Of a DNA stretch of 52,108 nucleotides, positions 5,197 through 47,729 are shown piece after piece. A program made the position numbers and the translations under genes. The DNA is taken from positions 1-52,108 of the IMG/VR virus record IMGVR_UViG_3300034069_000182. One strand, given 5' to 3'. Each line of letters begins with the position of its first letter. Positions within the stretch are counted from its first letter, which is position 1. This DNA is from a virus. The notes under the pieces were generated by a model that ran no database searches, was not told the DNA's origin, and saw nothing but the letters and a program-made list of their open reading frames with translations.

Positions 5197-5349
5197 ATGA
5201 CCGCATCGGTCAGCATCCGAGTAGGAGAGATCTTCGAGGACGAAGATGGTCTGTGGAAGGCTCGCCTCATCGTCGGGGACCGTCCAGGGGGGACCATCAC
5301 TTTACCAGAACACCTGGTCCGGTCGGCGATGGAGAACGCTGCTGAGTGA
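5197..5349 (+). CDS. Hypothetical protein, 50 aa (below ORF-track cutoff); first left-arm gene
   Basis: SD is GGGAGGG. Reads MTASVSIRVGEIFEDEDGLWKARLIVGDRPGG.. The stop overlaps the GTG of the HNH gene. Confidence 0.5.
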   Translation: MTASVSIRVGEIFEDEDGLWKARLIVGDRPGGTITLPEHLVRSAMENAAE

Positions 5350-5642
5350 GCTGGGAGTCATCTGACCGTCGTGAGCGGCTGCCGTCCGACTGGCCTCGCA
5401 TCCGCCGCGAGGTTCTGCGGGCGGCTGGTCACCGCTGCCAGATCCGCTACGCGGACATCTGCACGGGGATGGCTACCGAGGTCGACCACGTCCGCTACCG
5501 CGACGAGGAGTCACCTACCCAGGCGTCGTGCAAACCGTGTCATGCGCGGAAGTCCGCGATGGAAGGTGTCGCTCAGCGTGCGAAGCTGCGCGCGATGAAG
5601 AAGCGGCCACCGCCCCGCCACCCGGGGCGTAGAAGCAACTAG
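5346..5642 (+). CDS. HNH endonuclease
   Basis: ORF track. Contains HRCQIRY..C..EVDHV..C..CH, i.e. Cys/His HNH-type motifs. Confidence 0.75.
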   Translation: MSWESSDRRERLPSDWPRIRREVLRAAGHRCQIRYADICTGMATEVDHVRYRDEESPTQASCKPCHARKSAMEGVAQRAKLRAMKKRPPPRHPGRRSN

Positions 5643-5677
5643 GAGGGACCAGGCGTCCCCGTAGCCCAGGAGGCGTC

Positions 5678-6118
5678 ATGGGAACCCGAGGACCGATCCC
5701 GAACCGCTCAGACGAGCGGGTTCGCCGTAACAAAGAAGAGTACGGAGAGGTCACTACTCTCCCCGTCTCCGGACCCGTGAAGTCCCCTCCGCTCGGTCTC
5801 ACCGATCCTCACCCGATCGTCCGAGACCTCTACAACTCTCTAGCCGAGTCGGCGCAAGCCGCGCTTTATCAGCCGTCGGACTGGCACTACGCGAAGTTCA
5901 CCCTCCACTTCGCCGACCAGCTCCTGAAATCCTCCAAACCCTCGTCGCAGATGCTAGTAGCCGTCAATCAGATGCTGTCTTCACTTCTGGTCTCAGAGGG
6001 AGACAGGCGACGGGTTCGGATCGAGGTGGAGCGGACGAAGTCAGACGGTCCGGATGCGACGGTGACGACGATGGGCGAGCTGTTCGAGCGCGCTCTCCGT
6101 AAGCCGAAATCGAGCTAG
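5678..6118 (+). CDS. Terminase small subunit (P27-like)
   Basis: ORF track. The N-terminal MGTRGPIPNRSDERVRRN is typical of this family. It lies next to the HNH gene and near cos. Confidence 0.65.
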   Translation: MGTRGPIPNRSDERVRRNKEEYGEVTTLPVSGPVKSPPLGLTDPHPIVRDLYNSLAESAQAALYQPSDWHYAKFTLHFADQLLKSSKPSSQMLVAVNQMLSSLLVSEGDRRRVRIEVERTKSDGPDATVTTMGELFERALRKPKSS

Positions 6119-6240
6119 AGCCGGCGTCCAGATCGTAGATCTGGCGCGCCCCGAGGCCCCGGCTATGCCGGAGCCGACCGCAGTCCCGGCGGGGTTGAGC
6201 GATCCCCTTCCGTCGCTCCCCCGCTGGGGCTGCTTCCAAA

Positions 6241-6253
6241 CTTGACACGTAAC
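6241..6253 (+). promoter_or_regulatory. Stoperator 13-mer (exact, rightward sense)
   Basis: CTTGACACGTAAC upstream of 6298..6489. Confidence 0.85.
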
Positions 6254-6297
6254 CGAGACGGGGGAAAGACATTAGCGACTTCTACGGCGAACTCAAG

Positions 6298-6489
6298 GTG
6301 TTCGTCGCCACCCACGACTACTCCGGTCGCAGACTCCCCAAGTCCAGGCACTACCCGCTGATCAGCGACGGCCGATACGGCGAGCTGTACGAAGGCGACG
6401 CCGACGGTGCACGCGCACTGGCCGCCGATCTCCTCGCGGCAGCCGACGCGTACGACAGGCTGTCGGCCGAACTCCGAGACGCCGAGTAA
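6298..6489 (+). CDS. Hypothetical protein, 63 aa (start uncertain; possibly the ATT at 6271)
   Basis: ORF track with a GTG start and weak SD. An in-frame ATT at 6271 has GGGGGAAAG upstream. Confidence 0.5.
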   Translation: MFVATHDYSGRRLPKSRHYPLISDGRYGELYEGDADGARALAADLLAAADAYDRLSAELRDAE

Positions 6490-6731
6490 CCCAAGACCCG
6501 GGCGCAACGACCCGACTGAGGCGACCTGCCGTGACGACGGCGGTCTTCGTGCTCAGGAACCGTTGCACTAAGTGCTGACCCGGCCCAGCATGGCCGGTGT
6601 AGGCGCTTTCCGCCCGGAGGATCGGACCCCCCGACAGACGTATGAGCTGCCGGTCTCGTATCCGTCCTCCGGGCCTCAACTTGCCAGGCAGGCGAGACCA
6701 GCCAGTAACCAAGAGCGGTCGCCCCTGGTAT

Positions 6732-6825
6732 CTCCCTGTACGCCAAAGGCAGTAGCGGCCCGCACAGCGGGTGGACCTGACTAAAGCAGGTATTGGGCGT
6801 CCGGTTCGACTTCCGGACCAGGGAG
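6732..6825 (+). ncRNA. tRNA-like cloverleaf element (non-canonical; possible decayed tRNA or structured RNA)
   Basis: 7-bp acceptor-like stem CTCCCTG/CAGGGAG. D-like arm CGC-CAAAGGCAGTA-GCG. Hairpin ACCTG-ACTAAAG-CAGGT. T-like arm GTCCGG-TTCGACTT-CCGGAC abutting the 3' acceptor strand. Against a true tRNA: a 16-nt extra hairpin, an 8-nt T loop, C at position 33, and no CCA. Confidence 0.25.
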
Positions 6826-6894
6826 CGAGGCAGGAACGGGCTTCGGTTCCGCTGCCAGAAAGGCGTGCCCGCGGCCATAACGGCGGGCTTCAAA

Positions 6895-6907
6895 CTTGAC
6901 AGATAAC
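6895..6907 (+). promoter_or_regulatory. Degenerate stoperator-like site
   Basis: CTTGACAGATAAC (2 mismatches), followed by the usual GAGAGGCCGGT-ATG leader. Confidence 0.4.
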
Positions 6908-6918
6908 GAGAGGCCGGT

Positions 6919-6957
6919 ATGAGCTCCACCGGTAAACGGGCTCACCTTTACACGTAA
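6919..6957 (+). pseudogene. Vestigial 12-codon ORF between two stoperator-like sites
   Basis: MSSTGKRAHLYT with a canonical leader. Its stop TAA lies inside site 6946..6958. Confidence 0.3.
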
Positions 6958-6958
6958 C
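6946..6958 (+). promoter_or_regulatory. Stoperator 13-mer (1 mismatch)
   Basis: CTTTACACGTAAC, 18 nt upstream of the ATG at 6977. Confidence 0.55.
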
Positions 6959-6976
6959 CGTCGGAAGGACAGATAC

Positions 6977-7213
6977 ATGACCCGCGAGAGAGAGCAGGCA
7001 GACTTTGCGGGCCTGGTGCTCATGTCGGTAGTCGCCGCCCTGGACGGTAGCCCGTGGGTTACGAAAGGTCATTTACGGGAGCTGTCAAGCGATGTAGCCG
7101 CCGTGGCGGTGGAAAGGATGTCCGAGACAGACTCCTTTTTCCTACCGGACGGAACTCTCTTTGAGAAGCGCGACAGCGACCTAGACGCACTGGACGAATA
7201 TCGGGCTCAGTAG
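6977..7213 (+). CDS. Hypothetical protein, 78 aa
   Basis: ORF track. SD is GGAAGGA. Confidence 0.65.
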   Translation: MTREREQADFAGLVLMSVVAALDGSPWVTKGHLRELSSDVAAVAVERMSETDSFFLPDGTLFEKRDSDLDALDEYRAQ

Positions 7214-7215
7214 AG

Positions 7216-7228
7216 CTTGACATGTAAC
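7216..7228 (+). promoter_or_regulatory. Stoperator 13-mer (variant)
   Basis: CTTGACATGTAAC, 17 nt upstream of the ATG at 7246. Confidence 0.7.
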
Positions 7229-7245
7229 TACTACGAGAGGCCGGT

Positions 7246-8316
7246 ATGACCGTCACGATCACCGCCGACGTCCGCGACGTCACCGGTCAGCCTGACAACC
7301 AGCAGTGGGTGTTCTCGACCGTGCTCCGACAGCAGGACGGCTCGATCCTCACCCAGAAGCAGGTCCGGGTAAACCCGGTGGACGGCGCACTGAGCGTAGA
7401 GCTGGAACCCGGCTTCGCGATCGTCGTCTACGGCGAGTACCGCTGGTTCATCGAGGTCCCCGAGACCGACGCCGGTCTGTGGGGCCTGATCGCCACCTCG
7501 GTCGCGGTCCCTCCGGACACCTCCGCTGAACTGCTCGCTGACGCTGTCAACGGCTACCTCGACGCGAACCCGCCGTCAGCGGACTGGGACGCGTTGTCGA
7601 ACGTTCCGGTGGAGTTCCCGCCGTCTGCGCACGACCACGTCGCCGCGGATGTCACCGACCTCGACTCGGCTATCGCCGCGTACCTGGCCTCGAACCCGCC
7701 CGAGGCAGGCGCGGTGTCCTGGGACGACGTCACCGACAAGCCGTCGACGTTCACCCCGAGCTCGCACACCCACTCGATCGCTAACGTCACCGGGCTACAG
7801 ACCGCTCTCGACGAGAAGCTTGACGAGGACGCGGTGGACGCGCGGGTGGCTGTCGGTACCGCCGCGCTGGTCGACTCGGCACCGGAAACGCTGAACACGC
7901 TCAACGAGCTGGCCGCAGCGCTGGGCGATGACCCGAACTTCGCTACCACGGTCGCCTCGCAGATCGGTGCGAAAGCCGACAAGGCCCGCACGATCACCGC
8001 GGGCACCGGCCTCACCGGCGGCGGCGATCTGACCGCCGACCGGACGCTGTCCGTCTCGTTCGGCACGTCGTCGACGACCGCGTGCGTCGGTAACGACTCC
8101 CGGCTGTCGAACACCCGCACCCCGACTGACGGTTCGGTGACCAACGCCAAGGTCGCATCCGGCGCGGCGATCGCGCTGTCGAAGCTGGCCACCGGCTACG
8201 TCGCCGGCTCGGACAACTCCGGTGCCCGGACGCTGACGATCTGGGTCGGGACCGAGGCGCAGTACACCGCAATCGGCACCAAGGACTCGAACACTATCTA
8301 TCTCAGGACTGCATAG
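7246..8316 (+). CDS. Minor tail / tail fibre-like protein
   Basis: ORF track, 356 aa. Repeated PP..A..W...P..F.P..H.H motifs and coiled segments. Occupies the L5 gp6-like position, from memory. Confidence 0.65.
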   Translation: MTVTITADVRDVTGQPDNQQWVFSTVLRQQDGSILTQKQVRVNPVDGALSVELEPGFAIVVYGEYRWFIEVPETDAGLWGLIATSVAVPPDTSAELLADAVNGYLDANPPSADWDALSNVPVEFPPSAHDHVAADVTDLDSAIAAYLASNPPEAGAVSWDDVTDKPSTFTPSSHTHSIANVTGLQTALDEKLDEDAVDARVAVGTAALVDSAPETLNTLNELAAALGDDPNFATTVASQIGAKADKARTITAGTGLTGGGDLTADRTLSVSFGTSSTTACVGNDSRLSNTRTPTDGSVTNAKVASGAAIALSKLATGYVAGSDNSGARTLTIWVGTEAQYTAIGTKDSNTIYLRTA

Positions 8317-37575: not shown

Positions 37576-37588
37576 GTTACGTGTCAAG
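37576..37588 (-). promoter_or_regulatory. Stoperator 13-mer (exact)
   Basis: GTTACGTGTCAAG, between the polymerase stop and the next gene. Confidence 0.85.
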
Positions 37589-39418
37589 TTAGAAGCCGCG
37601 AGAACGGAGCTCGGCGTCGTGCTGAGCCATCGTCTCTGCATCCATGTATCCGCTGCCCCAGGACTTACCTGTGACCTCGGGATCGGTATTCACCAGCACC
37701 GGGCCGATGCGCTGCTCCATGATCTGGCCCACCTCCTTGACTGCCGCCTCGGCGTCGGCCTCCGGGAGGGACAGCAGCACCTCGTCATGGACAACGAGCC
37801 GCATGTTCGGGGTGAAGCCCGCCTCGTGCAGGCGCAGTACAGCCGCGCCAGTAACGTCACGTGACGAGCTCTGGATCAGATAGTTGAGCGCTGAGTAGGC
37901 ACGGTCTGGGTCGACCGGCAGGCGACGCCCCGTGGGCGTCGTGATGAAGCCCGCCGAGCCGGCCTCCTGCTGCATCTGCTTGTTGAGCGTGTCGACGCCC
38001 GGGTAGGTGGTCGCGAAGACCTCCAGGACCTTCTTGGCCTCGGGGAAGGTGATACCTGCGTTGGTGGCGAGCTTGCCCGCCCCTCCCCCATAGCACACAA
38101 GAAAATTGGCCATCTTGCCGATTTTCCGATCCACACCTGCGGCGTCCGCGGTCACCTGATGCAGGTCGGACTCCTCCTCAAAAGCCCGGAGCATCGTTTG
38201 ATCGCCGGACAACGCGGCCAGAACACGGAGCTCCTGAGCGCGGTAGTCCACCGACGCGATGATCTGCCCCGGGTCCGCCAGGAAGCAGCGGCGGACCATC
38301 CAATCTCCCGACGGCAGATTCTGAGCCGACGGGTTAGACGTACTCATGCGGCCTGTACGGGCCTGCAGCGGGTTGATCCCCGGATGGACCCGGTCGTTGG
38401 CGTCCCGCCGCTCGATGAAGTTGCGGACCCAGGTCTTCTCCCAGGAACCCCACTTCTTCGCCTCGATCGCAGCCTTCGCCAGCGCGTTGCCCTCCTCAGC
38501 CAGAGCTTCCAGCAGCTCGGCGTTCACCTGGCGCTTACCCGTGGGCGTGTGGCCTTTGATCTTCACGCCCGTGCGCTCCAGACCGTCAGCCAGCTTCTCG
38601 GTGGAGTTCACCGAGTCGACCCCGTACACGTACCGGGCCACCGCGGTGTAGTGCTCGGACTTCCGCAGCATGTCCGCTGACAGCTTCTCCGAGTAGTCGA
38701 CGTCCAGCAGGAACCCGGTGCGTTCGACGTACGACATCACCTCAGCGAGCTTGTGCTCGTACGGGATCAGTTTGTGCGACGACTCCGGGACCAGCGGGGC
38801 TACCTTGCCCAGCAGCCGGGACACCAGGATCGTGTCCATGCCGGCGTACAGCTCGTAGTCCGGGTCGTCCAGGTCGACCAGCGCCCAGATCTTGTCTTTG
38901 GTGGTCTTGTGCTTCTTGGCCAGGCGAGCCATCGAGGCTTTGACCTCTTCGGCGGTCACCGGGTCGATGTAGAACTTCGTCAGCTCTTCCAGCTTGTGGC
39001 CGGTCCCACCTTCTTTGTAGGCCCGGGGGTCTACCAGGTGCGAGTAGATCTTGGTGTCCTCGACCTTCGGCCACATCTGCTCCATCGGCACACCGAGCGT
39101 CCGCTCGATCACCTGGAGGTCGAACGCGGCGTTGTGGATCACGAAGCGCTGGACCTTCTGGAGAGCGGTGACGGCGGCTCCTACGAACGCGCCGCCCCGC
39201 TCCACCGGCAGAACCCACGACTCCCACGGGTTACCGAACTGGATCAGCCGGATACCGAAGTCCGGCTTGTAGATCCCCAGATCCGTGGTCTCGGTATCGA
39301 GGCCGAGAATCCGGAGGTTGGAGCGGATGAAGCTCTCGAACCCGTCGAGATCATCCTCGTGCTCTACGACGTTGACCAGAACTGTCTCGTCCTTGATCTG
39401 GTAGCGGTGTTGCTTCAC
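37589..39418 (-). CDS. DNA polymerase I (3'-5' exonuclease plus family A polymerase)
   Basis: ORF track, 609 aa. Contains LGLDTETT (exo I), RRCF..DYRAQELRVLA, QVTADAAG..R..GKMANF and LVVHDEV. Confidence 0.9.
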   Translation of the reverse strand: MKQHRYQIKDETVLVNVVEHEDDLDGFESFIRSNLRILGLDTETTDLGIYKPDFGIRLIQFGNPWESWVLPVERGGAFVGAAVTALQKVQRFVIHNAAFDLQVIERTLGVPMEQMWPKVEDTKIYSHLVDPRAYKEGGTGHKLEELTKFYIDPVTAEEVKASMARLAKKHKTTKDKIWALVDLDDPDYELYAGMDTILVSRLLGKVAPLVPESSHKLIPYEHKLAEVMSYVERTGFLLDVDYSEKLSADMLRKSEHYTAVARYVYGVDSVNSTEKLADGLERTGVKIKGHTPTGKRQVNAELLEALAEEGNALAKAAIEAKKWGSWEKTWVRNFIERRDANDRVHPGINPLQARTGRMSTSNPSAQNLPSGDWMVRRCFLADPGQIIASVDYRAQELRVLAALSGDQTMLRAFEEESDLHQVTADAAGVDRKIGKMANFLVCYGGGAGKLATNAGITFPEAKKVLEVFATTYPGVDTLNKQMQQEAGSAGFITTPTGRRLPVDPDRAYSALNYLIQSSSRDVTGAAVLRLHEAGFTPNMRLVVHDEVLLSLPEADAEAAVKEVGQIMEQRIGPVLVNTDPEVTGKSWGSGYMDAETMAQHDAELRSRGF

Positions 39419-39432
39419 CCGCCCCTCCCTTC

Positions 39433-39445
39433 GTTACGAATCAAG
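39433..39445 (-). promoter_or_regulatory. Stoperator 13-mer (variant)
   Basis: GTTACGAATCAAG upstream of the polymerase start. Confidence 0.75.
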
Positions 39446-39454
39446 CTGGAGACG

Positions 39455-39685
39455 TTAGAGTCCCAGCTCCCGTCGGATCTGCCCCTCCGGGGTTTCTTCC
39501 TTGACCATCACCCGGCCGTAGTAGGCGATGTTGTTCTTGATCGGGAAGATTCGGTACTCCCCCTCCCCGAAGTCGACTGCCAGCTCGTCACCGCTGATGC
39601 GGTACTCGCAGTCGTCCGGGAACGTCCAGAACAACCCGTTCTGGAGCATGACCATGAACTTCGGAACCTTGATTTCCTCGCTCAA
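39455..39685 (-). CDS. Hypothetical protein, 76 aa
   Basis: ORF track. TTG start after AGGAGG. Confidence 0.6.
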   Translation of the reverse strand: MSEEIKVPKFMVMLQNGLFWTFPDDCEYRISGDELAVDFGEGEYRIFPIKNNIAYYGRVMVKEETPEGQIRRELGL

Positions 39686-39702
39686 TTACACCCTCCTAGG
39701 TG

Positions 39703-39715
39703 GTTACGAGTCAAG
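39703..39715 (-). promoter_or_regulatory. Stoperator 13-mer (variant)
   Basis: GTTACGAGTCAAG. Confidence 0.75.
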
Positions 39716-39727
39716 TTGAAGACCTGA

Positions 39728-40237
39728 TTAACGCGGCGGGTAGAAGAACTTAGCGGGGCGCGGATCGTCCTCGCTCGGATCGTCCTTGGCCGGAGGCATC
39801 CACGCGTGCCAGACCTTGCCGGTCTTCTTCGAGATGCCGGTCTTGTAGACGAAGTCGTCGTACGGCTTCGGCGGAGCCCACTCCGGGGCTTCCTGCGCAC
39901 CCTGCGGAGCCTGACGCCGGTACCCGCCGCCCGAGGACTGAGCGGGAGCCGGTGCAGCCGACCCACCCGCGAACGCCGCGGCGACCTTCTTCACCTTGTC
40001 CATGTAGTCCTTGAACTTCGCATCCAGCAGTGCGTCGGACTCTTCGACCGACGAAGCGTGGATCACGATCCACGGCGCGTCGAAGTCCCGGCCACCCTTC
40101 AGGGTGGTGACGATCTTGCCCTCGCCGGGCGCCACGTTGCTGCTGTTGTTGACCACGGTGGTCGCAGGGGCGGTGGTGGCGACAGGCTGCTCGGGGCCGT
40201 TGTCGTTCGAGGCCCAGGGATCGGTGGTGACAGTCAT
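39728..40237 (-). CDS. Hypothetical protein, 169 aa (function not supportable from sequence alone)
   Basis: ORF track. ATGA overlap. Confidence 0.65.
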   Translation of the reverse strand: MTVTTDPWASNDNGPEQPVATTAPATTVVNNSSNVAPGEGKIVTTLKGGRDFDAPWIVIHASSVEESDALLDAKFKDYMDKVKKVAAAFAGGSAAPAPAQSSGGGYRRQAPQGAQEAPEWAPPKPYDDFVYKTGISKKTGKVWHAWMPPAKDDPSEDDPRPAKFFYPPR

Positions 40238-40419
40238 TCGGTTTCCTTCCGGTTGTTGTAACCGGGGGTGTATAGACCCCCGACGTACATTTCGAGATCC
40301 TGCTGACTCCAGTTGGAGAGCAGGGCTTCCTTCTTGTTGGGGTAGAGCTCAGGCGTCACCCACGCTCGGTACATGTCGACGCCGGACATACCGCCGAACT
40401 GGCCGTCGAAGATGTTCAC
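40234..40419 (-). CDS. Hypothetical protein, 61 aa
   Basis: ORF 40234..40608 trimmed to the GTG at 40419 (GTGA overlap). Reads VNIFDGQFGGMSGVDMYRAWV.. Confidence 0.5.
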   Translation of the reverse strand: MNIFDGQFGGMSGVDMYRAWVTPELYPNKKEALLSNWSQQDLEMYVGGLYTPGYNNRKETE

Positions 40420-41207
40420 GCGGCAGCCCCTGACCCTGCGCAGGACGGGATCAGGTGATCCCTGAACCGTCCCGAGCTGATCGGCACTATGTGGTGGCAC
40501 ACCGGGCACGCCCGGCGATGCTTCGGAGCACTGGAGGTCACCTGCTCGGCGGTAGCCAGGTCGAACAGCTCCCGGTACGTCAGACCGTCCTCGCCGGCTG
40601 ACTTCCACCCGTCGTCAGCGAGACGAGTAGCCATCTCCCCGACAGGGTCACCCGGGCCGTTGTGCGACCGGATCGAGTCCGGGAACACCTTGGACCGTGA
40701 GCCTGGCCCGTCGTGGTCATCGGTCTGCTTGATGACCTTGTGGACCTCTTCGAGCACCGCGCGGTGAGCATTCTTCAGCCGGTCCTTGGCGGCCTGGTCC
40801 CGCAGAACCACCCCGTCGATGTACCTGACCTTGAGCGCTTCCGCGTACGGCGGGTGACGATCCACGAGCTGGGAAACAGCCTGAGGAATCACCTCCATCA
40901 GGTACACGTTGTCCGATCGGCCTTTGAGCGCGTCTTTGATCGACTCCGACGAGTAGTCCCAGTCACCCCGGGCTAGGTCGTCCGCGAACGCGGACTCGCT
41001 CAGGATCTGATACGCGTGACGGCGCAGGAACGAGATAGCCTCGCCCTCCGACGGCTGCGTAGCCGCGGTCATCCGCGACGACTTCTCCAGAACAGCGACC
41101 CACAGGTCCCCGGTCAGGTCTTCCAGCTGATCGGCTGTCAGAGACCACTCCACCCCTGCGGACTTCGCACCTCGTCTGAGGCGCTTGTCCAGGAGAGAGT
41201 CATCCAT
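40416..41207 (-). CDS. Hypothetical protein, 263 aa, with a C-terminal Cys/His cluster
   Basis: ORF track. Contains ACPVCHH..DHLIPSC. Confidence 0.65.
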   Translation of the reverse strand: MDDSLLDKRLRRGAKSAGVEWSLTADQLEDLTGDLWVAVLEKSSRMTAATQPSEGEAISFLRRHAYQILSESAFADDLARGDWDYSSESIKDALKGRSDNVYLMEVIPQAVSQLVDRHPPYAEALKVRYIDGVVLRDQAAKDRLKNAHRAVLEEVHKVIKQTDDHDGPGSRSKVFPDSIRSHNGPGDPVGEMATRLADDGWKSAGEDGLTYRELFDLATAEQVTSSAPKHRRACPVCHHIVPISSGRFRDHLIPSCAGSGAAA

Positions 41208-41334
41208 TCACCGGCTCCAGACTGCGCTTGGCGTAGGTCTCCTCGACCAGAACCTCGATCAGCTCGACCCGGGGAATCTCCCGGGACCGGGCTTCGAAGT
41301 GCAGGTACGGCAGAACGTTCCCGTTACGTGTCAA
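41200..41334 (-). CDS. Hypothetical protein, ~44 aa (start uncertain; TTG inside a stoperator)
   Basis: The frame of ORF 41200..41415 runs through the stoperator. The only start after the upstream stop is the TTG at 41334. Confidence 0.35.
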   Translation of the reverse strand: MTRNGNVLPYLHFEARSREIPRVELIEVLVEETYAKRSLEPVNG

Positions 41335-41335
41335 G
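41323..41335 (-). promoter_or_regulatory. Stoperator 13-mer (exact)
   Basis: GTTACGTGTCAAG, 9 nt after the stop of 41345..42112. Confidence 0.85.
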
Positions 41336-41344
41336 GCCACGGCG

Positions 41345-42112
41345 TCAGACTTCCCAGACCTGGCCGTCAACGGTGAACTTGCCTCCCAGGATCGGGACGA
41401 TCTCAGCCTTGACATGCTTGCCGTCGACCGTGAGCATCCCGAAGCCCATCTGCCAGTTCCCAGCTCCGCCCTTTAGATAGTTGGCCTTCTTCATGTCCAT
41501 CAGGTGCCCGACTTCCATGCCGGTGACGGTCTTGCGGACTGAGCCGCCGTACCCGAACGAGTGCGAGACGACAGCCTGCCGGTGCGTGTGGCCGCAGACC
41601 ACGGACTTGCCGAACTTCTTGGCGCCGTTGAGCGCTGTCGATCCGGCGATCTGGGATAGCGTCATCTTGCCCATGTGCCCGTGAGTGGAGATCCATCCCG
41701 GAGCGATGTCGTAGAAGTCAGGCAGCAGCTCCACACCGAACCCGTCGAAGTCGAGCAGCACGTCGATATCGAAAGCGTGCGTACCCTCCAGGGCCGGTGC
41801 GTTCTTGGCCAGGTACTCGCGGGCTCGCAGATCGTGGTTGCCCTCGTGCATCCCGATCCAGCCGTCGTAGACCTTGCGCAGTGGCTCCATCAGGTTCTTC
41901 TTGGCGTAGTCTGCGTCGCGGTACACCGAACCCTCGAACTCGCCCTTGGTCCCTCGATTCCAGCGCGAGGGCTGCGGCAGGTCTAGGACGTCACCGATAT
42001 GTACCACGCCGTACGGCTGGACATCCCCGATGAAGCGGATGACCGCTTGCATCTCTTTGCGCGCCTCGAAAGGCAACTGAGTGTCGGGTAGAAAGACGAT
42101 TCGTTTAGTCAT
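41345..42112 (-). CDS. Calcineurin-like metallophosphoesterase; candidate recombination directionality factor (Bxb1 gp47-type)
   Basis: ORF track, 255 aa. Motifs GDVLD, GNHD and GHTH. Size and family match what I recall for the Bxb1 RDF. Confidence 0.7.
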   Translation of the reverse strand: MTKRIVFLPDTQLPFEARKEMQAVIRFIGDVQPYGVVHIGDVLDLPQPSRWNRGTKGEFEGSVYRDADYAKKNLMEPLRKVYDGWIGMHEGNHDLRAREYLAKNAPALEGTHAFDIDVLLDFDGFGVELLPDFYDIAPGWISTHGHMGKMTLSQIAGSTALNGAKKFGKSVVCGHTHRQAVVSHSFGYGGSVRKTVTGMEVGHLMDMKKANYLKGGAGNWQMGFGMLTVDGKHVKAEIVPILGGKFTVDGQVWEV

Positions 42113-42288
42113 TTGGTTCCCTTCTCTGCGAGGAGGGATAGCTCCGCGCGTACTGATCGGTAGACGTCGTCCAGCGCGTTGATCGCGTTGGTGACAGATG
42201 TGTAGGTGACGGTGTCGAGGTCGATGTGTAAGGACATACCGCTCTGAGGGGTTTCGACCTCGCGGTAGATCTCGTGGTAGTCGCTCAC
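42109..42288 (-). CDS. Hypothetical protein, 59 aa
   Basis: ORF 42109..42315 trimmed to the GTG at 42288 (GTGA overlap). Confidence 0.5.
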   Translation of the reverse strand: MSDYHEIYREVETPQSGMSLHIDLDTVTYTSVTNAINALDDVYRSVRAELSLLAEKGTK

Positions 42289-42851
42289 TCGACGACCTCC
42301 GTGAACGGAGCCCATTCGTTCACGAACTCCGCTCTAAACACGCTTATCGCGCGCCGCGAGCATTGCCGGTTCCCGAACCTGTCGATTACGTCGACACCAT
42401 CCGGCACGTGCCGGATGTCGTTCCACACCCTCGGCTCGTCCAGATCCACGAGAGCGTCCTCGTCTTCGCCGTCCGCGTACGTGATGTCGTTGAGCGCATC
42501 CACCCACGACAGCGAGTCGTGCTCTTCGTTACGAATCAAGTCGTCGGGCAGCGGAAGATCGAACATAGCGAGCCGGTCGTCCTCCTCTACCGGCTCCTCG
42601 TAGATCCGCTCGACGCAGCCGGCGTAACCCGCGATGTCGGTATAAGAGTCCCGGTGGTACCCCGTACCCTTCACCCGGGCCACCTTGACCAGGATCATCA
42701 GGTTCGCGACGTCCAGGTCAGTAATCGGACGCTCCAGGTACGCGGAGAACAACGCGGAGATGTCGGCGAAGTTCTCCCGGGGGTGCCCGTAGTTCTTGTT
42801 GCGAGGTCCGTGGATCAGGCGCTGCGCCTCTTCCAGGATGCTTTCTGTCAT
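42285..42851 (-). CDS. Hypothetical two-part protein, 188 aa, with an in-frame internal stoperator
   Basis: ORF track. The N-terminal GPRNKNYGHPRENFADIS..VKVAR is a conserved-looking phage domain. The stoperator is read as LIRN at the domain junction. Confidence 0.6.
   Translation of the reverse strand: MTESILEEAQRLIHGPRNKNYGHPRENFADISALFSAYLERPITDLDVANLMILVKVARVKGTGYHRDSYTDIAGYAGCVERIYEEPVEEDDRLAMFDLPLPDDLIRNEEHDSLSWVDALNDITYADGEDEDALVDLDEPRVWNDIRHVPDGVDVIDRFGNRQCSRRAISVFRAEFVNEWAPFTEVVE
42528..42540 (-). promoter_or_regulatory. Stoperator 13-mer (variant) inside a coding region
   Basis: GTTACGAATCAAG, translated as L-I-R-N. Confidence 0.65.
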
Positions 42852-43369
42852 ATCCCTACCTTGTCTTTCAGTGCTTGTACTCCCTGGCTGAGCACCAGGT
42901 CGTTGACATCCGAGCCATCGGGCATCGGGATGATCTTGGCGTTGGGCAGAACACCCGCCACCGTCTCGGCGAACTGCATCCCCGCGTCGTCACCGTCCGC
43001 GAGTATCAACACCTCTCGGTACCCGAGGAATGGTTCGCGGAAGTGCTCTTTCCACGCCTGCGCTCCGGGGACCCCGACCGTGGGGAACCCCGCGACAGAC
43101 GCTGTCAACGCATCGATCTCGCCCTCCGCGATCCCGATACGCTGAGCCGGCTGCAGCAGCGCCAGCGTGTTGTACAGCCGCCCGGTGTCACCTGGGACGG
43201 TCAGGTACTTCGCCTTGCCCTCGGCGGCGTCTAGGCGACGAAACCTCAGCGAGACCACCTGCCACCGCTCGTCCGGAGCCCATCGCAGGTAAGGGATAGC
43301 GAGCATCCCTTTGTACATCTCGTGACCGGGCAGCGGCTCTTCCACGTACCCGAGGCGAAACTGCGTCAC
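42848..43369 (-). CDS. DNA primase, TOPRIM-containing C-terminal part (frame open upstream to 43507)
   Basis: ORF track, 173 aa. Contains IAEGEIDALT..VLILADGDDAG. Upstream in the same frame, SYLLQASQRYHKALAGSAAEEYLATRGL is primase-like but has no canonical start. Confidence 0.7.
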   Translation of the reverse strand: MTQFRLGYVEEPLPGHEMYKGMLAIPYLRWAPDERWQVVSLRFRRLDAAEGKAKYLTVPGDTGRLYNTLALLQPAQRIGIAEGEIDALTASVAGFPTVGVPGAQAWKEHFREPFLGYREVLILADGDDAGMQFAETVAGVLPNAKIIPMPDGSDVNDLVLSQGVQALKDKVGI

Positions 43370-43730
43370 CGCCTCTGCGATAGCCGGCGCGGTCAGCCCG
43401 CGGGTTGCCAGATACTCCTCGGCCGCGGACCCAGCCAGCGCTTTGTGATAACGCTGCGACGCCTGAAGGAGATAGCTCTTGTGCTCTTTCGACTGCTGTT
43501 TGATAGTTCACCTCCTCGTAAGTCATCAGCAACGTGATCGCGTTGCCCCGCGCCGAACAAGCGAGGCAGTTGAAAGCGTTCAGCTGGTACGACACCGCGG
43601 CAGACGGCCGCGACTCCTCGTGGTGCCAGCAGAGGCAGGGAATCCACACCCGGCCCGTGTCCTCGGGCGGTACCCAGTCAGGTGCCAGCCGCTCGATGAC
43701 CTTCGCGATCAGCGTTTGTGAAGGTTCCAC
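43188..43730 (-). CDS. DNA primase, N-terminal zinc-finger part (meaningful only to about 43470)
   Basis: ORF track. Contains CLCWHHEESRPSAAV..FNCLACSARGNAITLLM (CHC2-type finger). The rest of the ORF is Arg/Gly-rich overlap with the other frame. Confidence 0.6.
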   Translation of the reverse strand: MEPSQTLIAKVIERLAPDWVPPEDTGRVWIPCLCWHHEESRPSAAVSYQLNAFNCLACSARGNAITLLMTYEEVNYQTAVERAQELSPSGVAALSQSAGWVRGRGVSGNPRADRAGYRRGGDAVSPRVRGRAAARSRDVQRDARYPLPAMGSGRAVAGGLAEVSSPRRRRGQGEVPDRPR

Positions 43731-43873
43731 CGGAAGACCTCGTACACTTCGATACCCTCGTGGTACGGGAACTGCTGCTTGAGCGCGTCGTCTAGGAACT
43801 CGTAGACGTCCTCGGTGTCGGTGGTCGGATCGACCTTGACGAACGCCTCGATCTTCATCCAGCCCTGGCTCAT
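43709..43873 (-). CDS. Hypothetical protein, 54 aa
   Basis: ORF 43709..43981 trimmed to the ATG at 43873. Reads MSQGWMKIEAFVKVDPTTDTEDVYEF.. Confidence 0.55.
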   Translation of the reverse strand: MSQGWMKIEAFVKVDPTTDTEDVYEFLDDALKQQFPYHEGIEVYEVFRWNLHKR

Positions 43874-44010
43874 CAGAGCGTCGCCTCCGCCGCTTCGACC
43901 AGTCCTTTCACGAGACGGATAATCTCGTCGGCGGCGTACAGGTGGACCGTGAGCGGTACGTCCTCGACCTCGTAGAGCCACTGCTTGGCTGCGGCTACGG
44001 CATCGATCAC
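43873..44010 (-). CDS. Hypothetical protein, 45 aa (below ORF-track cutoff)
   Basis: GTG start in a GTGA overlap. Reads VIDAVAAAKQWLYEVEDVPLTVHLYAADEIIRLVKGLVEAAEATL. Confidence 0.45.
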   Translation of the reverse strand: MIDAVAAAKQWLYEVEDVPLTVHLYAADEIIRLVKGLVEAAEATL

Positions 44011-44141
44011 TTACCCCACCTCCGAGCGGCGCGGTCCACGGAGTGCTCTGAGACGTTCCGGGCCAGCGCGTACTTACGCGGGTCCAGCAGAGCCCCCAGC
44101 AGCTGCTGACGGAGCAGGTTCGGGCGTGCAGTCGGTTTCAT
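44007..44141 (-). CDS. Hypothetical protein, 44 aa (below ORF-track cutoff)
   Basis: ATGA overlap with the endonuclease VII stop. Reads MKPTARPNLLRQQLLGALLDPRKYALARNVSEHSVDRAARRWGK. Confidence 0.45.
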   Translation of the reverse strand: MKPTARPNLLRQQLLGALLDPRKYALARNVSEHSVDRAARRWGK

Positions 44142-44614
44142 CGTTTCTTCCTTCCTTGGTTACGATTCAAGTTCGGGACCTCGATAGGAGCGATCCGTTT
44201 CCCGATCACCGCGAACGCGGGCGGGTTCTCCAGGTAGTCGATGCCACGCTGGAGAGCTTCGGGGTCGTCACCGAGGTGACCGAGTACGTTGCGGTTACAG
44301 GGCGTATCCAGCAGCCCGCGAACGTGCCCGGTTCGGTGGTCGTGGTCGACGGCCAGCTTCTTCCGCAGGCCTCGGCCTTTGCGGCAGATGTAGCACCTGC
44401 CACCTTGAGCCTCGTATATCCGCCAATACTCATCGGCGGTGATGTCGTAGAGCTCCAGAAGACGCTTCTCCCACGCCGTATCCTTTCGGACGGTTCGCTT
44501 TTCGCGATGGTGAGTTGCGCATCGAGGTCCCGGGTGAGGGGCGGCTCGGCGGGTTGTGATCCCGGCCGCTGCGCAGTCGACGCAGCGCCGGGGCTTAGGC
44601 TTAGCCGCCGCCAT
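44138..44614 (-). CDS. Endonuclease VII (Holliday-junction resolvase type)
   Basis: ORF track, 158 aa. Contains CYIC..LAVDHDHRTGHVRGLLDTPCN. Confidence 0.8.
   Translation of the reverse strand: MAAAKPKPRRCVDCAAAGITTRRAAPHPGPRCATHHREKRTVRKDTAWEKRLLELYDITADEYWRIYEAQGGRCYICRKGRGLRKKLAVDHDHRTGHVRGLLDTPCNRNVLGHLGDDPEALQRGIDYLENPPAFAVIGKRIAPIEVPNLNRNQGRKKR
44159..44171 (-). promoter_or_regulatory. Stoperator 13-mer (variant) inside the 3' end of the endonuclease VII gene
   Basis: GTTACGATTCAAG, translated as L-N-R-N. Confidence 0.7.
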
Positions 44615-44687
44615 CCAACCACCCGACCAACCACAGACCTGCGCCCCACGCGATGATCGAGTACGCGATCAGCTGCTCGATGCTCAT
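44601..44687 (-). CDS. Small hydrophobic peptide, 28 aa
   Basis: ATGA overlap. Reads MSIEQLIAYSIIAWGAGLWLVGWLDGGG. Confidence 0.35.
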   Translation of the reverse strand: MSIEQLIAYSIIAWGAGLWLVGWLDGGG

Positions 44688-44860
44688 GCCTCGCTCCATC
44701 CCGACACCCAGCGGGCCTCGTGGTTGGGTTCAGACTGCACAACCGACCCGACAACAGGGTGGTTGAACTTTTGGCAGGCGCATTCGCCGCCGCGGCAGCA
44801 CTCACAAGAATCAAAGAAACAGCTGGTGCATACGTCTTTGGTGGAGTACCGAGGAATCAT
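44684..44860 (-). CDS. Cys-rich small protein, 58 aa
   Basis: ORF 44684..44971 trimmed to the ATG at 44860 (ATGA overlap). Reads MIPRYSTKDVCTSCFFDSCECCRGGECACQKF.. Confidence 0.5.
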   Translation of the reverse strand: MIPRYSTKDVCTSCFFDSCECCRGGECACQKFNHPVVGSVVQSEPNHEARWVSGWSEA

Positions 44861-45261
44861 CGGGCCACAACCGCAGCAGCAGCAGCGAGAAGGGCGGCGG
44901 CATAACCACGCGCCCGTTCGGGAGACATCATCTCGCCATCCGGGGATGCGATAACCTCGGGGTCCGGCCACGCGCTCACGGGATCTTCATTGAACCCAGT
45001 AGGCCACGCGCCCAAGCAGTGGGAGTGCCATTCGCTTAGCGGATTACACGGTTCGGGTAGCTGGATTACCGCCACACCCGGAAGAGACAAGAGAGCGTCA
45101 ACAACATGGGCAGCGTGCGCCTTGGCGATCCGCTCATCCTCGCCGCAGAAGTACGTACGTTCTTCTGGCCAATTCCAGCCGCATCCGCAGCCGAGAAAAT
45201 CTCCGCGCCACCGATGCAGCGCCTGGGCTTCTGTGAGTACAGCACGCAACTCAGGGTTCAC
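44857..45261 (-). CDS. Hypothetical protein, 134 aa
   Basis: ORF 44857..45471 trimmed to the GTG at 45261 (GTGA overlap with the NrdH stop). Its N-terminus is shared with 409..642. Confidence 0.6.
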   Translation of the reverse strand: MNPELRAVLTEAQALHRWRGDFLGCGCGWNWPEERTYFCGEDERIAKAHAAHVVDALLSLPGVAVIQLPEPCNPLSEWHSHCLGAWPTGFNEDPVSAWPDPEVIASPDGEMMSPERARGYAAALLAAAAAVVAR

Positions 45262-46354: not shown

Positions 46355-46355
46355 T

Positions 46356-47386: not shown

Positions 47387-47387
47387 G
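47375..47387 (-). promoter_or_regulatory. Stoperator 13-mer (1 mismatch)
   Basis: GTTACTAGTCAAG. Confidence 0.55.
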
Positions 47388-47389
47388 TC

Positions 47390-47572: not shown

Positions 47573-47580
47573 ATCTCCTC

Positions 47581-47593
47581 GTTACGTGTCAAG
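47581..47593 (-). promoter_or_regulatory. Stoperator 13-mer (exact)
   Basis: GTTACGTGTCAAG, 8 nt upstream of the ATG at 47572. Confidence 0.85.
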
Positions 47594-47727: not shown

Positions 47728-47729
47728 TT

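Follow-up and report, generated by a model that had tools for sequence, protein, structure and literature searches.

What is encoded in a stretch of about 400 nt that lacks a credible open reading frame (ORF) in the left arm of a phage genome? The window analysed here (52,108 nt) is the whole genome of a Cluster A1 (Bxb1-like) mycobacteriophage in circularly permuted form. The initial annotation, made by a model from the letters alone, treated the gap (6490-6894) as a single ORF-free object with dense secondary structure, and offered three readings: a tRNA gene in decay, a regulatory or processing element resembling a tRNA, and a new phage non-coding RNA. The lack of a coding frame is borne out, as only Arg/Pro/Ser-rich ORFs cross 6490-6894 and no frame is open across the homologous region. 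Most of it is indeed densely structured (-189 kcal/mol for all 405 nt, z = -2.66), with the exception of 6828-6892 (z = -0.82). The idea of a single object does not survive comparison with relatives, as a conserved element breaks off at 6728/6729 and resumes at 6914, beyond the end of the gap as first drawn. The gap has two parts, a conserved multi-hairpin element (6494-6728 and 6914-6943) and an insertion (6729-6913, insertion X), and the proposals divide between them: a decayed tRNA is the best account of the cloverleaf within the insertion, while a novel non-coding RNA is supported for the left 240 nt, which are conserved, covarying, non-coding and present in A1 phages but are not the part originally stressed. 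The features, some of them predictions from the letters, are:

6494-6500, + strand: 5′ end of the element, AGACCCG, nearly invariant; begins 5 nt past the stop of a 63-aa ORF.
6504-6566, + strand: hairpin A, GCAACG...CTGAG...CTGCCGT-GACG-ACGGCGG...CTCAG-GAAC-CGTTGC, 22 base pairs.
6570-6608, + strand: hairpin B2 (optional), AAGUGCU..CCGGCC-CAGCAU-GGCCGG..GGCGCUU.
6612-6674, + strand: hairpin B3 (optional), GCCCGGAGGA...TCCTCCGGGC, distal part variable, arms 100% complementary.
6679-6729, + strand: hairpin C, ACU-U-GCCAGG-CA-GGC-GA-GACC-(loop AGCCAGUAACCAAGAGC)-GGUC-GCC-CCUGG.
6729-6913, + strand: insertion X, 185 nt, between CCCCTGG and CCGGTATGAG of the canonical element, junctions placed by alignment.
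6732-6825, + strand: tRNA-like cloverleaf with a 7-bp acceptor stem (6732-6738/6819-6825), a D-like arm and a T-like arm (6799-6818).
6830-6855 and 6867-6888, + strand: two further hairpins, GCAGGAAC..GTTCCGCTGC and GCCCGC..GCGGGC, read from the sequence.
6895-6907, + strand: degenerate stoperator-like 13-mer, CTTGACAGATAAC, two mismatches from the consensus and outside the set with at most one mismatch.
6914-6943, + strand: motif D, 3′ end of the element, CCGGTATGAGCTCCACCGGTAAACGGGCTC; possible hairpin GAGCUC/GGGCUC, or 3′ strand of helix P1.
6946-6958, - strand: predicted stoperator after the element, GTTACGTGTAAAG on the minus strand, kept after motif D in relatives.

In Bxb1-like (A1) mycobacteriophages the element separates the genes on the small-terminase side from the minor-tail genes. 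We found it upstream of the minor-tail gene in all 43 A1 relatives checked, in six module arrangements; the Bxb1 copy is the unannotated gp3/gp4 gap (2046-2260), which carries no insertion. Its core consists of hairpin A, hairpin C and motif D, with hairpins B1, B2 and B3 as optional inserts between A and C. B2 is present in 13 of the 43 relatives, always alongside B3, and B3 occurs alone in phages of clusters V, J and F. Two of the helices seen initially lie somewhat elsewhere than was thought: CCGGCC/GGCCGG, placed at 6590-6607, is at 6580-6585/6592-6597, and the 13-bp bulged helix given as 6623-6673 is real but starts at 6613 (CCCGGAGGATCGGA at 6613-6626 with TCCGTCCTCCGGG at 6661-6673). 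Hairpin A has an asymmetric internal loop (NCCCRA / GAAC) and a GACG apical loop, both conserved. Hairpin C has a 17-nt loop that hardly changes, even when its canonical helix is compared with the CCCC/GGGG version. Motif D directly adjoins hairpin C in 40 other aligned copies of the element and in Bxb1, and in the window phage the insertion cuts off the 3′ foot of hairpin C; the end of motif D lies exactly 30 nt before the tail-gene ATG in 28 of the 43 relatives. In the minimum-energy folds of several variants the 5′ end AGACCCG and the 3′-terminal CGGGCU of motif D form a closing helix (P1). The P1 sequence is nearly invariant, which leaves no possible covariation signal, and RNAalifold suggests an alternative pairing.

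Beyond the A1 phages, fragments of the element with differing boundaries occur in cluster F, J and V phages. These shifting boundaries also fit a recombination-prone DNA region. The element was not found at 27 loci of more distant phages that have relatives of the tail protein, and a genome scan for host or prophage copies with the hairpin C loop pattern returned only two chance matches in unrelated bacteria. Rfam 15 contains no match, at or near a family's gathering score, to the element as present in the window, in seven related loci or in the uninterrupted Bxb1 copy. The Rfam search returned only an unrelated tRNA and an abiF RNA in a Cluster J locus. We found no description of the element in the papers searched, and regard it as a new candidate structured RNA motif.

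The hairpins of the element in the window fold better than their shuffled controls, with z-scores of -2.59 for hairpin A (6500-6569), -3.57 for B2 (6570-6608), -3.66 for B3 (6610-6676) and -2.70 for hairpin C (6679-6731). A model of hairpin A (R1) scores 98.5 bits on window positions 6500-6568 and recovers a divergent A′ version in eight relatives at 38-42 bits. In its alignment 95.4% of the cells are paired and four pairs changed on both sides, against 25-47% paired cells in slid controls. The corresponding model of hairpin C (R2) gives 96.5% paired cells, and hairpins C and D together give 96.8% with three pairs changed on both sides (slid controls 29-55%). The hairpin C helix can be followed step by step, from GACC/GGTC through GGCC/GGTC (a G·U pair, in relative L054) to GGCC/GGCC (in relative L053), and is CCCC/GGGG in Alsfro copy 1 and in Mutaforma13; G·U intermediates are seen in L054 and ThreeRngTarjay. 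Likewise, the base helix of B3 changes from CCCGGAGGA/TCCTCCGGG to CCCGAAGGG/CCCTTCGGG in three relatives (L011, L015 and L031), and the base helices of B1 and B3 carry compensatory changes, their tips having been swapped meanwhile. The helices are thus kept by compensatory substitutions, as expected of a conserved structured RNA, on the basis of few independent events among closely related genomes and of model-fitted alignments. Given a plain MAFFT alignment, RNAalifold proposes a global fold that differs in part. On the + strand, several pairs are mostly G·U; folding energy is uninformative as to strand, as minimum free energies do not favour the + strand.

The element also appears to be under selection. 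Pairwise diversity is 0.027 in hairpin A (19 canonical-form phages) and 0.024 in C and D (all 26 distinct phages), compared with 0.109 at third codon positions of both flanking genes, roughly a fourfold difference. Low diversity is found without a conserved frame, the pattern of a non-coding sequence under purifying selection. The set of modules varies, and three viable phages tolerate an extra 185 nt separating C from D. The element may therefore be not a single folded RNA but a series of hairpins that are independent of one another.

What might such an element do? We consider a cis-acting RNA structure in the late transcript, serving processing or stability, to be the leading reading, with a probability of about 0.5. 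The left arms of L5 and D29 are transcribed late, from a start about 230 bp from the left genome end (PMC5712189), and on this basis we take the element, which lies in the rightward-transcribed left arm, to act as + strand RNA in cis. Its hairpins of ~18-22 bp would mark the boundary between the packaging genes and the tail, lysis and structural genes. Assuming transcription, RNA ends and cleavage, the likeliest mechanism would be that they serve as ribonuclease processing sites and/or as protective end-structures for the downstream message. The tRNA of some relatives and the relic here agree with this picture, as excision of a tRNA also cuts the message at the same spot. A parallel is phage T7, in which RNase III hairpins punctuate polycistronic transcripts: these too are irregular, span about two helical turns and have internal loops, lie in short non-coding operon spacers, and are oriented along transcription at the boundary of functional gene blocks. 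However, there is no sequence relationship, cleavage of the present element is hypothetical, its single spacer holds a cluster of hairpins that a common helix may close, and the mycobacterial host differs in the specificities of its RNases III, E and J.

On a broader and tentative reading, the A/C/D core would represent a kind of structured phage RNA new to the literature, confined to Bxb1-like mycobacteriophages and active in late gene expression. The core might form an RNA-processing hub that punctuates the late operon in concert with inserted tRNAs or tRNA-like structures, or it might modify the polymerase so that the numerous stoperators and hairpins are read through. The tRNA relic and the optional hairpins would then be expansions that a multi-branch RNA tolerates. 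Few mycobacteriophages are used as much as Bxb1 and its relatives (integrase tools, reporter phages, synthetic genomes, therapy candidates). The presence of the element in every A1 genome examined, its above-synonymous conservation and its position right before the tail genes make it a testable candidate for a post-transcriptional control point, and in the design of synthetic Bxb1 genomes the gp3/gp4 spacer should be handled as a functional sequence.

It is doubtful, but the foremost of the alternatives, that the element is instead released from the late transcript as a stable trans-acting RNA or works as a put-like processive antiterminator on RNA polymerase. P1 closes the hairpins into a discrete multi-branch domain in the minimum-energy folds described above, the core stays constant while variants gain or lose peripheral hairpins, a pattern shared by many functional RNAs, the hairpin C loop hardly varies, and the element adjoins tRNA genes in some relatives. 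Against this, a search of 5300-7600 revealed neither promoter-like nor intrinsic terminator-like flanking sites, P1 is invariant and the C-D insertion is tolerated, and the element lies ~1.7 kb from the inferred left genome end (~4750), far from put-type positions. Also in favour of a trans-acting RNA, small non-coding RNAs are produced in abundance at other places in Cluster A genomes, starting at the early promoter Pleft and, in D29, as an RNA between genes 63 and 64 (PMC5712189). Like the element, these derive from ORF-free conserved stretches flanked by stoperators, but they belong to the right arm or right end and are early, whereas the element is A1-specific and lies in the late left arm. 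Models R1 and R2 have no match at the window genome's right end, and an identity of the right-arm spacer that contains motif D with the D29 63-64 RNA was not established, those genes being 10 nt apart in the current record. Among other phage-encoded structured RNAs, the put RNAs of HK022 act in cis on the transcribing polymerase from promoter-proximal positions, and GOLLD and ROOL are large phage RNAs, present in Rfam and often found beside tRNA genes. The element differs from them in having no Rfam match, in being much smaller than GOLLD and ROOL, and in not being promoter-proximal like put.

The neighbourhood of the element raises the question of whether its role is exerted at the level of DNA. 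We take GTTACGWDTCAAG to be the 13-bp asymmetric consensus of the stoperators (repressor sites) of Bxb1-type phages, and 32 sites in the genome match it with at most one mismatch, compared with 0.12 expected. These sites are mostly oriented with transcription in each arm and include 6241-6253, 6946-6958 and 7216-7228; in consensus, repetition and orientation they conform to what is predicted of Cluster A stoperators. Stoperators bracket the element (6241-6253 and 6946-6958), motif D recurs beside some of them, and the insertion bears a degenerate copy; stoperators are, however, short unstructured sites in double-stranded DNA, 13 nt in length as opposed to the 215-323 nt of the element. Sequences related to motif D lie beside other stoperators at 47624-47599 of the window (minus strand) and at ~1640-1665 of Bxb1. 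The right-arm copy is on the minus strand and so runs with the transcription of that arm, which, like the G·U pairs on the + strand, favours action in the transcribed strand.

We judge it improbable, and less probable than a trans-acting or antiterminator RNA, that the element consists of protein-binding sites, extended stoperator context or a recombination-prone landing pad with incidental hairpins. Such a role would agree with the nearly equal folding of both strands, with motif D lying immediately upstream of stoperators at three places, with the insertion of an HNH gene, a tRNA, a 78-aa gene and insertion X at or near motif D, and with the spread of fragments to cluster F, J and V phages. 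Simple protein-binding sites, however, need none of the compensatory changes and G·U intermediates by which the helices are kept, the G·U pairs of the + strand are C·A mismatches in the opposite strand, and motif D stands beside only three of more than 30 stoperators. A mobile element of the MPME or MITE kind was also considered and rejected. MPMEs are ultra-small mycobacteriophage mobile elements of ~440 bp found in several clusters including F, and resemble the element as short segments in phages of several clusters; the element lacks terminal inverted repeats and a transposase ORF, and its copies in clusters F, J and V start and stop at different points.

The second part of the gap, insertion X, is bounded by the repeat GGTAT (6727-6731 and 6916-6920). 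Of the 43 A1 relatives 42 lack it, and the only phages found to share it are Carlyle and Alsfro, with 99.4% identity to the window; Alsfro carries it between two hairpin C copies that differ from each other. Searches for a donor returned only Alsfro and Carlyle (word-11 blastn of 50,697 phage records), only Alsfro (viral-contig scan), and from two metagenome scans first nothing and then two chance matches with unrelated flanks. The degenerate stoperator is followed by a GAGAGG ribosome-binding motif within 6895-6913, and ACGAGAGGCCGGTATGA (6906-6922) is identical to the tail-gene start region at 7233-7249, which suggests that the right junction arose from recombination at GGCCGGTATGA. In the window phage, Carlyle and Alsfro the 185-nt segment was inserted between C and D, probably by illegitimate recombination. 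It brought along a cloverleaf that is most likely a decayed, Asn-like tRNA, together with two hairpins of the ordinary kind, the degenerate stoperator and a copy of the ribosome-binding motif of a gene start. The helices at 6833-6850 and 6867-6888 are where they had been placed, but they are not stable beyond chance (39 of 200 shuffles of 6828-6892 fold as well) and no terminator-like T run follows. Mosaic junctions cluster at this site, with the HNH gene, the tRNA, the 78-aa gene and insertion X all at or near motif D.

The cloverleaf itself (6732-6826) folds with z = -3.34, and none of 200 shuffles folds as well. Its main pieces are in place as first described, CTCCCTG (6732-6738) pairing with CAGGGAG (6819-6825) and GGTTCGA lying in the arm at 6799-6818 (GTCCGG-TTCGACTT-CCGGAC, a 6-bp stem with an 8-nt loop, where a tRNA has 5 bp and 7 nt). 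Membership in the tRNA family was judged by the Rfam RF00005 gathering score (29 bits) and by ARAGORN at default settings. ARAGORN by default reports 0 tRNA genes in the window, and Rfam gives no tRNA match at the gathering threshold, nor at E <= 10 in searches of 1201 nt and 206 nt; a standard tRNA or tmRNA gene was rejected on these grounds. Relaxed ARAGORN does call the cloverleaf, but only at -ps90 or laxer, as a 94-nt "tRNA-Ala(agc)" with a long variable arm, and its calls genome-wide number 4 at -ps90, 31 at -ps85 and 115 at -ps80. The other three -ps90 calls fall where long ORFs run. Removal of the supposed extra hairpin yielded only sub-threshold tRNA-Leu(taa) calls at -ps80, and this candidate was dropped.

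The arms of the cloverleaf were probably misassigned in the initial annotation. At 6759-6771 the 16-nt "extra hairpin" aligns with the tRNA-Asn anticodon stem, but its loop has only 3 nt left (CCCGC-ACA-GCGGG in the minimum-energy fold), and the "anticodon arm" at 6775-6791 sits in the position of the variable arm. Neither candidate loop has all the features of a 7-nt anticodon loop (U33, a purine at 37 and a 5-bp stem), the originally proposed ACUAAAG having C33 and the ARAGORN-assigned ACAGCGG again having C33 on a mismatched stem. Further departures are the 8-nt T loop, the weak D stem and the absence of CCA. When eight tRNAs were compared, the best global alignments were to tRNA-Asn of L5 and of EniyanLRS (z = 3.1-4.0); tRNA-Gln reached 1.8-2.9, and Trp, Glu and Gly at most 0.24. 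As the cloverleaf is called only by relaxed ARAGORN, aligns best with tRNA-Asn and lies at a locus with a genuine tRNA-Trp in relatives (between motif D and the stoperator in 4 of 43), it is most likely a decayed, Asn-like tRNA, and one that probably no longer works as a tRNA. The relic and the genuine tRNA-Trp mark this spacer as a recurrent tRNA-gene insertion site in A1 phages.

Cluster A tRNA genes (L5 genes 7-9 and the A1 tRNA-Trp) share the neighbourhood of the cloverleaf, from the small-terminase side to the lysis genes and beside the minor-tail genes, as well as a 7-bp acceptor stem, GG in the D loop and a GGTTCGA T-like arm. The resemblance to L5 tRNA-Asn is seen in the first half, GTA-GCTCAATGGCAGAGC-GCCCGA...TCGGGTGG against GTA-CGCCAAAGGCAGTAGCG-GCCCGC...GCGGGTGG, and the tRNA of the relatives is followed by a stoperator and then a gene start, as is the insertion here. 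Unlike these genes, the relic has an anticodon loop of 3 nt, the T-loop and D-stem defects already noted and an extra segment of ~24 nt in the variable region, including a 17-nt hairpin, and escapes both default ARAGORN and RF00005; the tRNA of the relatives lies after the element, whereas the cloverleaf lies inside it.

Could the cloverleaf have lost decoding but still serve as a processing signal, at which RNase P and RNase Z cut the late transcript? RNase P requires mainly the acceptor/T-arm stack, and here the acceptor stem and T-like arm abut in tRNA style while the defects are in the anticodon and variable regions. In addition, the sole difference of the window from Carlyle and Alsfro, A6817G, turns U-A into U·G and keeps the T stem, and relatives have a genuine tRNA at the same locus. 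We nevertheless find this unlikely, about as much so as a DNA-level role of the element: three phages at 99.4% identity give no sign of selection on the cloverleaf, the T loop, D stem and missing CCA are themselves defects, the Rfam tRNA model finds nothing even at E <= 10, and the genome has 31 similar calls at ARAGORN -ps85.

Much less credible still is that the whole region is functionless debris of repeated illegitimate recombination between stoperators and gene starts, its structure reflecting GC-richness. The highly variable module content, the fragments scattered in other clusters, the ordinary hairpins at 6828-6892 and an overall z of only -2.7 would fit, but debris would not be expected in 43 of 43 relatives with a diversity about four-fold below that of neighbouring third codon positions, with helices maintained by compensatory changes and with a constant spacing between motif D and the tail gene.

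Least probable of all, finally, is the reading that small proteins, one or several, are encoded here, in line with the annotation in many GenBank records (for example Jorgensen gp4 and Alsfro gp5/gp6). A translated search does find protein homologues, which the initial annotation had named as evidence against an RNA: the window ORF 6572-6784 matches phrog_25290 (E = 7e-29), ORFs annotated in relatives match phrog_26979, phrog_7087, phrog_28044 and phrog_26323, and about half of the GenBank records among the matches listed have a "hypothetical protein" here. These families are, however, inconsistent ORF calls on the element, built from the same calls, with one ORF matching up to four families piecewise, and a Pfam search gave no match. 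Many records, that of Bxb1 included, have nothing annotated here. No frame is conserved among homologues: none is open across hairpin C in all variants (open spans are 13-398 nt), near-identical copies differ by 1-2-nt indels, and substitutions are compensatory within helices. Spurious "hypothetical proteins" on the element have in this way seeded several PHROG families. Among the element's lengths of 206-323 nt many differences are not multiples of 3, and the bases of motif D shared by three mini-ORF versions lie in different frames.

By BLAST, positions 6100-7300 match 323 phage records, mycobacteriophages without exception, with Bxb1-group Fromanvirus (e.g. Carlyle, Bethlehem, DD5 and Trouble) as the top matches. 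Sites resembling the Bxb1-type stoperator, whose consensus we take to be GTTACGWDTCAAG, number 32 in the window at one mismatch or fewer (0.12 expected) and are mostly oriented along transcription: the minus strand carries most of those at ~2716-34261, the plus strand most of those at 37576-48546 and 1545-2699. Together these relatives, the gene order and the 32 stoperator-type sites indicate that the window is a whole subcluster A1 genome in circularly permuted form. We infer that its left end is at ~4750 from where the HNH gene sits in Bxb1, and the stoperator strand layout fits a complete genome with physical ends there. The genes around the gap are:

5346-5642, HNH endonuclease gene
5678-6118, small terminase gene
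6298-6489, 63-aa ORF, directly 5′ of the gap
gap, between the 63-aa ORF and the 78-aa ORF
6977-7213, 78-aa ORF, 3′ of the gap
7246-8316, minor tail gene

The 63-aa ORF (6298-6489) gives DUF6907 in Pfam at E = 3e-4, under the curated cut-off, and matches no PHROG family; its slot is filled by other small genes in relatives, Carlyle gp5 and Bxb1 gp3 being unrelated to it. The 120 nt past the small-terminase stop (6119-6240), up to a stoperator at 6241-6253, are likewise ORF-free, hold small GC-rich hairpins such as CCAGATC-GTA-GATCTGG and have a conserved counterpart at Bxb1 1371-1490.

The initial annotation had described 6490-6894 as an ORF-free, densely structured stretch with a tRNA-like cloverleaf, and the lack of ORFs is real. 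The claim of dense structure holds against shuffles for the whole 405 nt (z = –2.66) and for the first four hairpins and the cloverleaf individually (z = –2.6 to –3.7), but not for the two hairpins at 6828-6892, which fold no better than shuffles (z = –0.82). The helices picked out by eye also exist, although two had been misplaced: CCGGCC/GGCCGG lies at 6580-6597 rather than 6590-6607, and the 13-bp bulged helix starts at 6613 rather than 6623.

Among phage records searched by BLAST, Carlyle alone covers at least 80% of 6480-6900, most other matches listed for this stretch stop at ~6728, and the right part (6725-6895) is shared by Alsfro and Carlyle alone (99.4% identical). In an alignment of 42 distinct copies, the 40 others read ...GGTCGCCCCTGG|CCGGTATGAGCTCCACCGGTAAACGGGCTC, followed in most by stoperator CTTTACACGTAAC or CTTGACACGTAAC; in the window and Carlyle 185 nt (6729-6913, insertion X) separate CCCCTGG from CCGGTATGAG, and it is because these nucleotides interrupt conserved sequence that the matches end at ~6728. 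The gap is thus composite, and the conserved sequence restarts at 6914, beyond the extent first proposed. GGTAT stands at both junctions of insertion X, and its right end, ACGAGAGGCCGGTATGA, is identical to the ribosome-binding/start region of the tail gene (7233-7249), suggesting that recombination took place at GGCCGGTATGA. Alsfro has the insertion between two differing copies of hairpin C; searches of phage, viral-contig and metagenome collections for a donor found none.

The conserved sequence itself is a multi-hairpin element present in 43/43 A1 genomes retrieved via the tail gene. Its parts are:

hairpin A, 22 bp, conserved internal loop, apical loop GACG (A′, a divergent version)
hairpins B1, B2 and B3, optional
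hairpin C, conserved 17-nt loop
motif D, last part of the element

Element architectures in the A1 sample and the window
A-B1-C-D, 19/43
A′-B1-C-D, 9/43
A-B1-B2-B3-C-D, 9/43
A-B2-B3-C-D, 4/43
A-other-C-D, 1/43
A′-B1-C-X-C-D, 1/43 (Alsfro)
A-B2-B3-C-X-D, the window

From the end of motif D to the tail-gene ATG is exactly 30 nt in 28 of the 43. The Bxb1 element occupies 2046-2260, within the unannotated 264-nt gp3/gp4 gap, and in minimum-energy folds of several variants the extreme 5′ AGACCCG pairs with a 3′ CGGGCU. The element is absent from 27 loci of more distant phages with tail-protein relatives and was not found in Rfam, and a hairpin-C pattern scan of 185,579 representative bacterial genomes returned no element and two matches with unrelated flanks.

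Truncated pieces occur in Cluster F (Mutaforma13, Whouxphf, Henu3 and TChen; loci L002 2000-2440, L055, L056 and L041 8780-8960), fused to a homologue of the 78-aa gene (6977-7213) that in Mutaforma13 forms the first part of a longer 636-nt gene, gp99; TChen keeps the Bxb1-type stoperator CTTTACACGTAAC beside its piece. Others are found in Cluster J (ThreeRngTarjay and others), and in Cluster V one phage, EniyanLRS (L057 1201-1275), holds B3 alone, 98.6% identical to the window, in place of ~60 nt of a Wildcat gp133-like gene (compared with the Wildcat locus L058) and with microhomology CTGGAGGGTG at the junction, which looks like a recent single-hairpin transfer between clusters. The boundaries of the pieces in clusters F, J and V vary every time, and the pieces look like products of illegitimate recombination. 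A discrete mobile element was rejected on its inconsistent boundaries and lack of terminal inverted repeats. ThreeRngTarjay also has an abiF RNA (RF03085, 39.7 bits, slightly over the gathering score; L004 669-704) adjoining a tRNA-Gly, ~1.3 kb upstream of the transferred fragment.

Covariance models were built for hairpin A (R1) and for hairpin C with motif D (R2), and all copies were realigned to them. Counted across closely related genomes with few independent events, in alignments fitted to the models, 95.4% of hairpin A cells are paired (25-47% with slid partner columns), with two-sided changes in four pairs (U-A/C-G, A-U/G-C via G·U, G-C/A-U and U-A/C-G), and 96.8% of cells in hairpins C and D (29-55% in slid controls), with such changes in three. 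The clearest series is that of hairpin C: most copies have GACC/GGTC, locus L054 has GGCC/GGTC (G·U), locus L053 has GGCC/GGCC, and Alsfro copy 1 and Mutaforma13 have CCCC/GGGG. Hairpin A changes from CTGAG/CTCAG to CTGGG/CCCAG in locus L039, and ThreeRngTarjay shows the G·U intermediate CTGGG/CTCAG. Compensation extends to the base helices of B1 (CCCCGCC/GGCGGGG to CCCCACC/GGTGGGG) and B3 (CCCGGAGGA/TCCTCCGGG to CCCGAAGGG/CCCTTCGGG), hairpins whose distal parts are swapped for unrelated ones. RNAalifold on the plain alignment gave a partly different global fold, and folding energy did not tell the strands apart; several predominantly G·U pairs favour the plus strand. Among 26 distinct A1 phages, third-codon-position pairwise diversity is 0.109 in both the terminase and the tail gene, against 0.024 for C+D and 0.027 for hairpin A in the 19 phages with its canonical form. 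These data indicate that the helices are maintained and the sequence is constrained.

Copies of the element measure 206, 212, 215-217, 233-234, 255, 265-267, 311-313 and 322-323 nt, no frame is open through hairpin C in every variant examined, and the upstream open span varies between phages, from 13 to 398 nt. Pfam has no match in the element region. A translated search for protein homologues did match plus-strand ORFs to PHROG families of unknown function, but piecewise, up to four families per annotated ORF, a pattern to be expected if genes are called inconsistently on non-coding DNA. Many records, Bxb1 included, carry no annotation here, and many others wrongly annotate the element as protein. 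Three versions of motif D (window 6916..., window 47624... on the minus strand, and Bxb1 ~1640...) share bases that fall in different frames, so motif D is conserved at the nucleotide level. The element as a whole is, on this evidence, non-coding.

What is shown is a conserved, non-coding, helix-maintaining element at a fixed position 5′ of the tail genes; judged by generic criteria it is a candidate structured RNA motif, and it lies outside every Rfam family. The late left-arm transcript of L5 and D29 begins ~230 bp from the left end (PMC5712189). The element would be transcribed within such a late transcript, would act in cis as RNA, and would stand as a divide between the packaging genes and the tail/lysis block. 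Its core hairpins have ~two helical turns each, with internal loops, a form taken by double-strand-specific ribonuclease sites and protective end-structures. A tRNA appears to be tolerated here and its excision would cut the message, so cleavage at this boundary may sit well with normal expression and perhaps even belong to it. We put the probability that the element has a processing or stability role, as a cis RNA in the late transcript, at about one half. A trans-acting or polymerase-modifying RNA is possible but rather unlikely; promoter-like and terminator-like sites were looked for and none found. Our literature search returned neither A1-phage transcript data nor a description of the element, which, sitting in the widely used Bxb1, offers a defined target to study late-gene control in Cluster A phages.

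An HNH endonuclease gene lies directly 3′ of motif D, before the stoperator, in Alsfro (gp7, L005 2250-2729) and Trouble (gp4, L006 1722-2201). A genuine tRNA-Trp(CCA) lies between motif D and the tail gene in 4/43 relatives (L013 2433-2508; also L085, L086, L093 and L095), with stoperator CTTGACATGTAAC two bases past it and then the GAGAGGCCGGTATGA start region as in insertion X, so tRNA cassettes reside at this spot. As HNH gene, tRNA and insertion X are all found there, the 3′ end of the element is a recurrent insertion point. A second ORF-free spacer of ~120 nt (47573-47729, minus strand), just upstream of a 60-aa gene, is flanked by perfect stoperators (47727-47715 and 47593-47581) and ended by the motif-D-like GGTATGGGCTCCACCGATAACGGGCC (47624-47599); 47595-47673 scores 20.7 bits with R2, a similar motif precedes the Bxb1 stoperator at 1668 (~1640-1665), and such non-coding motifs next to stoperators may form a small family. 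A DNA-level role tied to stoperators or recombination would draw on these surroundings, and beside the compensating helices we hold it to be improbable.

The cloverleaf did not stand as a tRNA gene. ARAGORN found no tRNA, calling 6733-6826 only once its threshold was lowered to 90%, as a 94-nt ‘tRNA-Ala(agc)’ whose variable arm is long; genome-wide there are 4 calls at 90%, 31 at 85% and 115 at 80%, and the other three at 90% lie where long ORFs run. Rfam gave no match at gathering thresholds and, in small searches, no tRNA even at E ≤ 10. Globally aligned to eight genuine phage tRNAs, the cloverleaf fits the two tRNA-Asn genes among them best (z = 3.1-4.0), with z = 1.8-2.9 for tRNA-Gln and 0.24 or less for tRNA-Trp, Glu and Gly. 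L5 gene 7 reads GTA-GCTCAATGGCAGAGC-G-CCCGA[CTGTTAA]TCGGG-TGG and the window GTA-CGCCAAAGGCAGTAGCG-G-CCCGC[ACA]GCGGG-TGG. This alignment reassigns the arms: the supposed extra hairpin (6759-6771) lines up with the anticodon stem, one pair being compensated and the loop reduced to 3 nt, and the supposed anticodon arm (6775-6791) is a variable-region insertion relative to tRNA-Asn. Together with the T-like arm loop, which does have the 8 nt described, these features make decoding implausible. Insertion X, which is rare, is laid out like a tRNA cassette (tRNA-like fold, spacer hairpins, stoperator-like 13-mer, ribosome-binding motif) and looks tRNA-derived. In how it would work the cloverleaf is like a phage tRNA gene, and it probably descends from one; it fails tests of tRNA membership by gene finders and anticodon loop. 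That this relic keeps a residual processing function is compatible with the other readings and, in itself, doubtful.

Neutral debris is very improbable beside the maintained helices and low diversity. Encoded small proteins are the least probable reading of all. Motif D holds an ATG and a mini-ORF of 10-12 codons. In this phage the 12-codon mini-ORF (MSSTGKRAHLYT*, 6919-6957) starts at that ATG and stops within the stoperator; its ribosome-binding motif, GAGAGG, comes from insertion X. Where motif D has the CCGACCGAAC form, the frame of the mini-ORF is shifted and, in copies with stoperator and tail-gene start directly behind, ends at an ATGA overlapping the tail-gene start.
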